The position numbers and the translations under genes are program-made. Positions 17,737-60,550 of a stretch of 64,000 bases of DNA are shown one piece after another (the first letter of the stretch is position 1; each line of letters opens with the position of its first letter). The stretch is from Methanocaldococcus indicus. GTDB lineage: Archaea; AGJL01; Methanococci; Methanococcales; Methanocaldococcaceae. The stretch is taken from the NCBI RefSeq assembly GCF_049554935.1, contig NZ_CP186926.1, forward strand, positions 960,001-1,024,000, in the 5' to 3' direction. The notes under the pieces are model-generated. The model was not told the DNA's origin, made no database searches, and saw only the letters and a program-made list of their open reading frames with translations.

Positions 17737-18169
<433 letters not shown>

Positions 18170-18251
18170 AGCGCAACGTTGTTAGGGACTCAGGATACCC
18201 CAAAGATGGTTAGCGTTGCGCCCACCCCAATTCACTATAAATTATAACAAC

Positions 18252-18268
18252 AATATAAAAATTTTGCG
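18252..18268 (-). promoter_or_regulatory. Putative BRE-TATA promoter of the small RNA
   Basis: cgcaaaat-ttttatatt about 25 nt before the GC-rich segment; AT-rich context limits certainty. Confidence 0.5.
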
Positions 18269-58206: not shown

Positions 58207-58262
58207 TTAATTCACCAAAAAAGATAAAAAATTATAATAGAATAAGATTAAAAATTTAATAT

Positions 58263-59570
58263 TTAAAGATATTCCTTAACTTTCTTTTTAATTCTTTTTA
58301 ATATTTCTCTGTCTGGTAGTACTCCTTCTGGTGGGTCAATAACTTTCTTTAAATCTAATGGGACTCCATCCATTCTATAAGCGGTTCCATCACACTCTAC
58401 TCCTGCTAATGCAGGAGGTAAAATAATATTTGCCAATTCAGTTGTTGGTGTTTTGTGAGGTTCTATACATATCAATGGTATTTTTGCAATATGTTCTAAA
58501 GCTTTTTGTGGGAAATGAGCTCCTGGGTCAGATGCAATATTTAGCATTGCATCAACTAATCCTCTTGTTAATAAATCTATTGCAGAGGTTTCTCCTGGAT
58601 TATAAACTGGATAACCTTTTGAGAAATCAACAGCATAAGCATATCCTGTTAGCCATGTACAAACTTGGTTGAAGCCATTAACGTTGTAGTGTCCTCTCAT
58701 TGGTGTTAAAATGAATTTAGTATATTTGTTTAAGTCAATAACCAATCTAATAGCATTGTCTATGTTTCTATGCTTACCTCTTGTCATTGTTAGACCCATA
58801 CCAAAGAAGAGAGCCCCATATTGAGCATTTTTACATAATTCAACAGTATCATAGATTAAATCAACTGGAACACCAGCTACTCTATCAACATTTAACTCTA
58901 AACCATTTAATACAGCTCTCATAGCTGCAACTAATTCATAATCTTTGTGCTGTTCAACTTTTAAATGGATGTCTGCAATTCTTGTAGTTGCTGTTTCTCT
59001 TGGGTCTACAACAACTAATGTTCTGTCTTTTCTACCTCTTTCTCTCCAATATCCTCTTGGAAATACTGGATATCTTGACATGTGTCTGGGGTGGGCGTGA
59101 ATTGGATTACATGCCCAATATATAACTAAATCAGCTCTATGGGTAGCCTCAGCTAATGTAGCAACGGGGTATCCTGAGTCCTGAACAGCCAATAATGAAG
59201 GTCCGTGTCATATAGTTGCTGTGTTGTCAATAACAGCTCCTAATAACTCAGCTAACTCTACTCCAACAATTTGTGCATGTGTTTCTGTAGAACTCCAACC
59301 ATATAAAAGAGGTCTTGTAGCTTCTGCCAATATTCTTGCTGTTTCATCTATTGCAGTGTCCCAATCAACTTTTTTAAAATCATCTCTTTTGTCTTCTCTC
59401 ATTAATGGCTCTGTATATCTAACAGCTCCTTCAAAATGCATAAATTTTGCATTTCCTATTCTACATGCATTTCTTGTTCCTACTATATGATTGTTTTCCA
59501 CTAAAATCTCTAGGTCATCACAAAGACAACCACAAAATGGACATACTACATTTTTTACAATTTTAACCAT
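58263..59570 (-). CDS. fwdB: Formylmethanofuran dehydrogenase subunit B, selenocysteine form
   Basis: [10 protein letters not shown]; in-frame TGA at 59210-59208 in DNTATI-U-HGPS (Cys position of the CHGPS motif) joins the two track ORFs. Confidence 0.95.
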
Positions 59571-59776
59571 ATTTGCCACCTTGAATAATTAAATTTTATA
59601 ATATATGTGATGGACTAAACTATTTGGATGTTATTGTATTTATCCTCAATTTTTTTATATATAATTTAGCATTAGCTCCATAAATATATGATATTAGAAT
59701 CTTAAATAATATGCTATAACTATAAATAATCTAAACTATAATTTTAATTGAATAAAATTATGTAATGAGGTTTTAG

Positions 59777-60550
<774 letters not shown>

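Follow-up and report, generated by a model that had tools for sequence, protein, structure and literature searches.

The canonical archaeal selenocysteine insertion sequence (SECIS), the hairpin of the 3' untranslated region (3'UTR), was reportedly described by Wilting and colleagues in 1997. To our knowledge every natural SECIS acts in cis, and we know of no RNA that performs guide-directed stop-codon recoding. We analysed a 64,000-nt window of the Methanocaldococcus indicus genome (assembly GCF_049554935.1, contig NZ_CP186926.1, forward-strand positions 960,001 to 1,024,000), in which a putative free-standing SECIS RNA lies 41 kb from fwdB, a gene with an in-frame UGA codon for selenocysteine (Sec). 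The leader of this RNA is complementary to the fwdB mRNA at two places, here called sites A and B, and to the mRNA of hdrA, a Sec gene outside the window.

The closest described arrangement is that of fdhA1 in Methanococcales, whose SECIS lies in the 5'UTR. According to the main text of Peiter et al. (2025, RNA Biol, PMC11881835), flanks of 7 and 10 nt are complementary to the open reading frame (ORF) and bring the SECIS to a point 43 nt past the UGA on its 3' side; the whole order shares this arrangement, and thermophiles have the longer complements. The resemblance consists in a canonical SECIS far from the UGA, with a flank complementary to the ORF a few tens of nucleotides 3' of it. In fdhA1, however, both flanks belong to the same mRNA and serve one target, whereas here all guides lie 5' of the SECIS and its 3' flank is an oligo-T. 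The guides are also longer than those of fdhA1, 17 + 12 nt for fwdB and 24 + 10 nt for hdrA, and they address two mRNAs from a separate locus. The searched main text of the same paper contains no occurrence of 'hdrA' and no docking at fwuB (fwdB) or hdrA. Our literature search turned up neither a natural SECIS acting in trans nor docking at fwuB or hdrA, although the supplements of PMC11881835 (Table S3, Fig. S1), which it did not cover, may list such flanks. A match to the phrase 'SECIS RNA in trans' in PMC3834832 was only a reference title ('...in translational control') and was discarded.

The hairpin itself is that of the canonical archaeal 3'UTR SECIS, with its GAA/A kink-turn-like motif (Peiter et al. 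2022 and 2025), but the orphan copy described here is in no selenoprotein gene's UTR. Bacterial SECIS elements, as far as the text consulted describes them, are bound by SelB immediately 3' of the UGA; once docked, the present hairpin would similarly sit within a few tens of nucleotides 3' of the UGA, at the entrance of the paused ribosome, although it lies outside the coding sequence and is unrelated in structure. The portion of review text consulted gives the archaeal SECIS-binding factor as unknown. Trans-encoded and 3'UTR-derived small RNAs (sRNAs) and box C/D guide RNAs likewise combine an antisense guide with a structured, kink-turn-like module or arise from 3'UTRs; unlike in these RNAs, the function recruited here would be stop-codon recoding rather than repression, decay or modification. 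For the HdrA and VhuD genes of Lokiarchaeota, Mariotti et al. (2016, PMC4989117) propose one SECIS for the Sec codons of both. That sharing takes place in cis on a polycistronic mRNA, whereas the present targets are unlinked and would be chosen by base pairing.

The features in question all lie on the minus strand of the window; mRNA positions are counted from the U of the UGA as +1 (59210 for fwdB).

58263-59579, minus strand: fwdB (fwuB), tungsten formylmethanofuran dehydrogenase subunit B, assigned from its ORFs and the TIGR03129 profile.
59210-59208, minus strand: in-frame TGA, the Sec codon of fwdB, from the ORF reading.
59165-59181, minus strand: site A, mRNA +30 to +46, GGACUCAGGAUACCCCG, codons Asp-Ser-Gly-Tyr-Pro; pairs with 17 nt of the leader, including a 16-mer.
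59086-59097, minus strand: site B, mRNA +114 to +125, CGCCCACCCCAG, codons His-Ala-His-Pro-Arg; pairs with the 5' tail of the RNA.
59097-59105, minus strand: alternative 9-nt register, CCAAUUCAC on the mRNA, found in this genome only.
18127-18236, minus strand: putative free-standing SECIS RNA of about 105-110 nt (predicted ends), composed of leader, SECIS hairpin and oligo-T, from sequence, fold and homology.
18219-18231, minus strand: leader 5' tail AUUGGGGUGGGCG, pairing with fwdB site B or, alternatively, with the distal hdrA pad CCACCCCAAU (+36 to +45).
18198-18220, minus strand: hdrA guide CGCAACGCUAACCAUCUUUGGGG, antisense to hdrA mRNA +10 to +33.
18186-18201, minus strand: fwdB site A guide, the 16-mer GGGGUAUCCUGAGUCC, antisense to site A.
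18133-18170, minus strand: archaeal SECIS hairpin, UGUGAGAGGG / GAA / CCCC-AACUAU-GGGG / A / CCCUCUCACG, from pattern scans and covariation.
18126-18132, minus strand: run of seven T, likely an archaeal terminator, right after the SECIS.
18252-18259, minus strand: TATA-like box TTTATATT, about 31 nt upstream of the leader GGGG, a putative promoter read from the sequence.

The tail sequence TGGGGTGGGCG at 18229-18219 on the minus strand is identical to 59087-59097 on the plus strand and is therefore antisense to the fwdB mRNA; counted over the whole of site B, the tail UUGGGGUGGGCG forms 11 Watson-Crick pairs and one G.U. Similarly, GTGAATTGG at 18235-18227 equals 59097-59105, and a gcaac at 59161-59165 abuts the 16-mer at 59166-59181, which is found again at 18201-18186. 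All four matches, noticed in the initial annotation as 11/11, 9/9, gcaac and 16-mer, are exact, and the antiparallel, co-linear order it described also holds: site A lies at +30 to +46 and site B at +114 to +125, with the SECIS 3' of both fwdB guides in the RNA, so that the SECIS end faces the UGA. We consider it fairly likely that the 11-nt match is this genome's form of a genus-wide site B between the SECIS RNA tail and the fwdB mRNA, within a docking system that has three targets.

The balance of SECIS elements in the genome singles out the two target genes. Against seven Sec genes stand only six SECIS, of which five directly follow hesB-like, fruA, selD, vhuD and vhuU on their 3' side and the sixth is the orphan in the window. 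Only fwdB and hdrA are left with no canonical SECIS of their own, and tRNA-Sec is present. The two halves of fwdB flanking the TGA both match TIGR03129 (profile positions 1-112 and 119-421 of 421), and the gene is single-copy with no cysteine (Cys) paralogue, giving a single tblastn match. A very relaxed scan of its strand between 55000 and 60200, in which the positive control was recovered, found no SECIS-like hairpin. The hdrA gene is likewise single-copy with no Cys paralogue in this genome. With Sec encoded by both genes, a single copy of each and no canonical SECIS on either, docking would have to act in trans, and it probably does. Runs at selD, fruA, hesB-like and vhuD of this genome were rejected as docking sites, being short and either AT-rich or G.U-containing.

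The orphan hairpin has the hallmarks of an archaeal SECIS: its basal helix is followed by the asymmetric GAA/A loop with GC clamps at its sides, and then by a 4-bp apical stem that ends in a loop of 6 nt, within the usual range of 3-8 nt. It is one of six matches genome-wide in the strict and in the relaxed pattern scan alike, and six pairs of its basal helix carry compensatory changes in an alignment of 15 sequences. What it lacks is the usual location in the 3' or, rarely, the 5'UTR of the selenoprotein mRNA that it serves, fwdB being 41 kb and hdrA about 880 kb away; in 10 relatives, the homologous element does follow fwdB. The hairpin at 18133-18170 is a candidate director of Sec insertion at the UGA. 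The whole element is GC-rich inside a genome of 28% GC, and its predicted fold (-44.2 kcal/mol, z -2.93) leaves the 5' 14 nt unpaired. An intramolecular leader stem, GCGCAACG/CGUUGCGC, was set aside: it comes from a single-sequence prediction, and the leader helices proposed by RNAalifold show no compensatory change. Archaeal RNA polymerase terminates at oligo-T tracts, and from the TATA-like box and the T run we infer that the SECIS RNA is transcribed separately, with its own promoter and terminator. A promoter and terminator scan limited to bacterial promoter types reported no terminator despite the run of seven T. Rfam gave no match at the gathering threshold across the whole window, and only chance-level matches up to an E value of 10. 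The gene 3' of the SECIS RNA encodes a P-II protein and has no UGA; the other neighbour is a small divergent ORF.

We searched 40 genomes of the order for the element at the DNA level (G000 denotes this genome). It is confined to the window's own genus, where 14 of 16 relatives carry it; those that lack it are two genomes of 86% completeness. In 10 relatives it is the fwdB 3'UTR SECIS and starts some 52-68 nt past the point where the fwdB match ends, while G010 has it on the fwdB contig, 213 nt downstream of the gene. Four genomes have a detached copy: G000 (41 kb), G008 (another contig), G015 (about 448 kb) and G003 (3.8 kb from fwdB), none of which has a SECIS-like hairpin within 1.5 kb 3' of fwdB. 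The genes flanking the detached loci form four different sets, and the fwdB-mobB junction is common to G000 and G008. All 15 copies carry a near-invariant leader of about 45 nt, GGGGUGGGCG(UG)CAACGCUAACCAUCUUUGGGGUAUCCUnnnUCC, followed by a variable spacer and then the SECIS. By this comparison, the SECIS RNA is homologous to the element that serves the genus as the SECIS of the fwdB 3'UTR, but has become detached from the gene.

A TATA-like box also precedes the leader GGGG by about 22-26 nt at the detached loci of G008 and G015. At nine cis-type loci, in the spacer that separates the fwdB stop codon from the leader, a conserved A/T-rich box, AAAAAUAUAAAUAUU, stands about 33 nt upstream of the leader GGGG, the same distance as that of the TATA-like boxes at detached loci. 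On this evidence the element might be transcribed on its own even where it lies behind fwdB.

Site A provides the most widespread pairing. Within the genus, 14 of 14 genomes have 13-22 contiguous pairs at +25 to +46. In four other genera the docking sequence stands directly 5' of the SECIS in all 12 Sec-type fwuB 3'UTRs, with 9-25 bp; its motif, GGUAUCCUAC..., recurs at 12 loci, and the pairing measures 11 bp in one of these genera and 14-25 bp in most others. An ORF complement shortly 3' of the UGA, the trait described for fdhA1, is in this way common to all 26 of these genes at site A, and at site B it is restricted to the genus. Where the 3' flank pairs in other genera, it does so through AT-rich stretches and in no consistent manner.

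Compensatory changes at site A are numerous and fall at the Asp, Val/Ser/Arg, Tyr and Pro codons. The mRNA and guide read GAC UCA / GAGUC in G000, GAU UCA / GAAUC in G008, GAC GUA / UACGUC in G003 and G039, AGAUGUA / UACAUCU in G015, CCA / UGGG in G005 and G009, and CCG G / CCGG in G039. G037, of another genus, has two Sec-type fwuB paralogues, each with its own matched guide; the divergent one reads AGA GGA UAU CCA / UGGAUAUCCUCU or, extended, AGA GGA UAU CCA GUU / AACUGGAUAUCCUCU, and G025 reads AGG GGA UAU CCA / UGGAUAUCCCC. G000 and G008 share one detachment and nevertheless differ by a compensated pair, from which it follows that selection on the pairing continued in the trans state. A matrix of site A duplex energies between own and foreign partners was set aside in favour of direct comparison of the duplexes: only 7 of 26 RNAs had their own target in first place, because identical targets are shared by most relatives. 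Taken with the conservation, the co-variation argues that the pairing at site A is under selection.

The hdrA mRNA, which the initial annotation did not consider, is a target of the same leader. Its guide is an exact 23-nt antisense, giving 24 bp including one G.U, to hdrA +10 to +33, the target lying at G000:C1:96125-96147, outside the window. The longest exact non-self match of the leader genome-wide is this one, followed by the 16 nt of fwdB site A. The stretch G000:C1:96113-96147, directly 3' of the hdrA UGA, encodes Ala-Pro-Lys-Met-Val-Ser-Val-Ala-Asn-His-Pro and is antisense to the leader. The pairing at +10 to +33 comprises 22-24 bp in 13 of 13 genomes and continues, after a small internal loop, with 7-13 bp at +36 to +48. 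Compensatory changes occur here too: in G013, AGC has become AAC, an amino-acid change, with C to U in the leader; in G003, CCG and GUC accompany two leader changes; in G000 and G008, GCG, a codon of 0.9% usage, accompanies CGCAAC. Co-evolving complementarity to the target, as expected of a trans-acting sRNA, is present at site A and at hdrA, and these changes argue that the hdrA pairing is under selection as well. The site A and hdrA guides overlap in the first GGGG of the former, and so fwdB and hdrA could not be bound simultaneously.

The 3'UTR of hdrA in this genome holds a short hairpin flanked by AGAUGA and CUGAUGA, with no GAA/A loop, whereas G014, G001, G005 and G002 have a canonical SECIS at the same position. 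Of 12 genomes examined, 6 have only such a short hairpin in place of the hdrA 3'UTR SECIS; in this one it lies at G000:C1 ~94640-94727, in the hdrA-vhuD spacer. The AGAUGA and CUGAUGA flanks of the reduced hairpin are reminiscent of kink-turn or box C/D motifs. A complement of 27-29 nt to hdrA +39 to +67 accompanies hdrA's own SECIS in precisely those four genomes of the genus whose hairpin is still canonical; wherever the canonical hairpin is missing this complement is missing too, with only 12 nt left in G004. The four complements are perfect, lie about 20 nt upstream of the SECIS and include one compensated change, UAU GCC with GGCAUAGG in G005 and UAC GCC with GGCGUAGG in the others. In the hdrA 3'UTRs of other genera, 5 of 12 genomes have complements of 25, 22, 21, 15 and 10 nt, and the rest are short or ambiguous.

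At site B, the 11-mer exceeds chance by a wide margin. Allowing at most one mismatch, it has 2 matches in the window against 0.01 expected, and none of 100 shuffles gave at least 2. Genome-wide, the tail 11- or 12-mer occurs only at the RNA locus, in fwdB and at one GC-rich non-coding locus. The last, an exact 12-nt copy (TTGGGGTGGGCG) at G000:C1:712311-712322, lies in an ORF-less region resembling a structured RNA gene and was taken as chance. When the FwdB protein was held fixed and its synonymous codons were redrawn in 20,000 trials, a complement of at least 11 nt to the 22-nt tail arose 0 times with the codon usage of the genome and 12 times with that of fwdB itself.

The codons of both sites, GCC CAC CCC and GAC..TAC CCC, had struck the initial annotation as atypical, and the genome-wide statistics agree: GCC makes up 5.1% of Ala codons, CAC 16.9% of His, CCC 2.6% of Pro, TAC 16.5% of Tyr and GAC 12.8% of Asp. 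The only GCC of fwdB (1 of 40 Ala) sits in site B, and of its only two CCC (2 of 25 Pro) one is in site A and one in site B. The pairing at site B, 10-14 contiguous bp at +110 to +125, is present in 14 of 14 genomes of the genus. Their Sec-type genes use CAC in 13 of 14 (CAU in G016 gives a G.U), then GCC in 14 of 14 and CAC in 14 of 14. We scanned an alignment of these 14 Sec-type fwdB genes in 419 five-codon windows: the lowest synonymous diversity, 0.036 against a gene mean of 0.359, falls in the one starting at codon +35 (site B), and the second-lowest, 0.101, in the one starting at +9 (site A). The constraint at the nucleotide level that had been suggested for both sites is in this way borne out.

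A comparison of fwdB genes with and without a cis SECIS, put forward as a test of these codons, comes out on the refuting side if its wording is taken literally. The 10 cis-SECIS genomes of the genus use the same CAC GCC CAC, because their cis element carries the same complementary leader; the pairing is therefore ancestral to the genus and no adaptation to the trans state. The informative contrast is with the other genera, whose 3'UTRs lack the tail and whose codons are ordinary: the 5' extension of the leader is missing there, 0 of 12 3'UTRs pair at +110 to +125, the first His codon is CAU in 11 of 12, and the Ala codon is GCU in 6, GCC in 4 and GCA in 1, with one Gly.

The tail is also the distal part of the longer hdrA duplex, and in this respect its description as a guide for fwdB alone was too narrow. 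Site B could accordingly be a by-product, the tail being kept only for the distal hdrA duplex (CCACCCC) and fwdB merely having similar Ala-His-Pro codons, with site A alone docking fwdB; we think this unlikely. The GGGGUGG core common to both pairings meets hdrA at +36 to +45 here and extends to 13 nt in G004 and G006, and in other genera the SECIS of hdrA itself is preceded by a motif, GGGUGGUU, that is complementary to this pad, their fwuB docking proceeding through site A only. Several further points weigh against site B as an anchor in its own right. It shows no clean compensatory double change, its variation being confined to the helix ends and the one G.U in G016. Its core CCACCC doubles as the hdrA pad, so that similar His-Pro codons account for part of the match. 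As the genus forms a single clade, CAC GCC CAC may have been fixed only once. Of the four Cys-type fwdB paralogues, which need no SECIS, three retain GCC and all four the second CAC, at least one of them being nearly identical to its Sec-type sister in the region of site B; on the other side, two of the four have CAU and one has GCU, and at site A two have GUU GGU UAU.

A by-product of hdrA pairing does not, however, explain why site B is the most synonymously constrained stretch of the gene, with a codon of 5% usage in 14 of 14 genomes. The rarity of such complements on resampling and the ordinary codons outside the genus, where the tail is missing, also speak against it. A leader triplet points the same way. 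As its reverse complement the leader is GUUGCA-CGC-CCACCCC, compared with GUUGCA-AA-CCACCCC in hdrA and UGCA-CGC-CCACCC in fwdB; both targets match in the flanks, and only fwdB matches in the middle triplet. This triplet, GCG in the leader itself, is invariant in 15 of 15 leaders, although it remains an unpaired internal loop against hdrA. On these grounds, site B is rather probably a real second anchor, specific to the genus, whose tail is shared with hdrA. The guide model of the initial annotation gains from the compensatory changes at site A and hdrA, and its interpretation is partly supported.

Two other pairings that had been adduced, the 9-nt register and the gcaac extension, were rejected as functional. 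Both are present in G000 only, with no counterpart in the relatives, and are close to chance: the 9-mer has 2 matches against 0.32 expected, at least 2 were found in 4 of 100 shuffles, and the resampling probability of at least 9 nt is 0.10-0.24. The relatives have no matching nucleotides 5' of the GGGG, and transcription may even start only downstream of the register, which probably has no function.

From these comparisons we can outline how the system may work. The fwdB 3'UTR SECIS element would have moved 41 kb from fwdB, to a place where it appears to have a TATA-like box of its own and to end in an oligo-T terminator. The leader, about 45 nt long, would serve as an antisense docking module for fwdB site A (+30, order-wide), fwdB site B (+114, genus only) and hdrA +10 to +48. 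Pairing would place the intact SECIS just downstream of the ribosome waiting at the UGA, mimicking the bacterial SECIS position, with the site B duplex about 110 nt after the Sec codon. Comparative evidence speaks well for an antisense-docked SECIS that would have turned into a free-standing RNA with two target mRNAs. We infer that the RNA pairs with both mRNAs in vivo and that Sec insertion is promoted by this docking. In a cofold of the RNA with fwdB +1 to +151 at 80 C, sites A and B are predicted to pair together with the SECIS intact, with a change in free energy (ddG) of -24.6 kcal/mol, and the predicted hdrA duplex is similar at -26.6 kcal/mol; these ViennaRNA energies at 80 C are extrapolations. 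We give about even weight to the broader reading in which the small RNA is a natural trans-acting SECIS whose programmable leader serves two unlinked essential methanogenesis mRNAs, fwdB through two sites and hdrA; in which the element already acts in trans on hdrA where it is the fwdB 3'UTR; and in which antisense docking is a general answer of Methanococcales to long distances between UGA and SECIS.

Besides the extrapolated energies, further observations count against this trans-acting role. The leader still targets hdrA in the four genomes where hdrA has its own docked SECIS. In this genome, co-transcription with vhuD would open to hdrA the SECIS of that gene, about 1.95 kb downstream, much as has been suggested for Lokiarchaeota. 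The selD gene has a UGA-to-SECIS distance of 1075 nt, yet no docking. In the reporter described in the main text of PMC11881835, the 5'UTR SECIS worked without docking, and the flanks did not significantly change activity (405 vs 385 mU/mg) while lowering the mRNA about threefold.

The last result would also suit duplexes that are real but regulatory, the leader exerting antisense control of the translation or stability of fwdB and hdrA, for instance by coupling them to each other or to the selenium supply, and delivering no SECIS. So would the targeting of hdrA next to its own docked SECIS, and duplexes of 22-24 bp starting 10 nt past the UGA could block ribosomes. We nevertheless regard purely regulatory duplexes as quite improbable, since the guides are physically attached to a SECIS in every case and point to a stretch immediately 3' of a Sec codon (in all 26 fwuB genes examined, in hdrA and in the published fdhA1), the two targets here are exactly the two Sec genes with no canonical SECIS of their own, and in the same reporter the flanks gave about twofold higher activity per mRNA. 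Chance similarity, or a rearrangement relic with no present function, is highly implausible: the 9-mer and gcaac are indeed at chance level and the lineage has undergone rearrangements, with four detached loci in four neighbour sets, but the 11-mer is far beyond chance, occupies the same mRNA position in 14 of 14 genomes, and is accompanied by compensatory changes at site A and hdrA, one of them after detachment, that show continuing selection.

Around fwdB, the 3' spacer (58207-58262, minus strand) is 56 nt long and A/T-rich, has several T runs, and ends in GGUGAAUU, the mobB ribosome-binding site; its likeness to the GUGAAUU that opens the SECIS RNA locus is probably a coincidence. The divergent neighbour of the fwdB 5' end is a thiazole-synthase-like gene (59780-60550, plus strand). 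In G008, such a gene lies directly downstream of the detached SECIS RNA, which looks like a footprint of the rearrangements that separated the element from fwdB.

Docking of the free-standing SECIS RNA, as preferred here, extends the published and functionally unresolved flank complementarity of fdhA1 to fwuB and hdrA, with many compensatory changes, which makes the communication between SECIS and ribosome over a distance directly testable. If site B is a second anchor, it is predicted to about double the binding energy of fwdB at 80 C in this hyperthermophilic genus. Selenoprotein prediction would be affected, since fwdB and hdrA would otherwise be called SECIS-less and the RNA an orphan SECIS. 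If the trans-acting reading is true, this would be the first natural case of a SECIS signal working from a separate RNA molecule; stop-codon recoding could then be guide-targeted in trans, and the leader would offer a simple rule for programming selenocysteine insertion at chosen archaeal codons.

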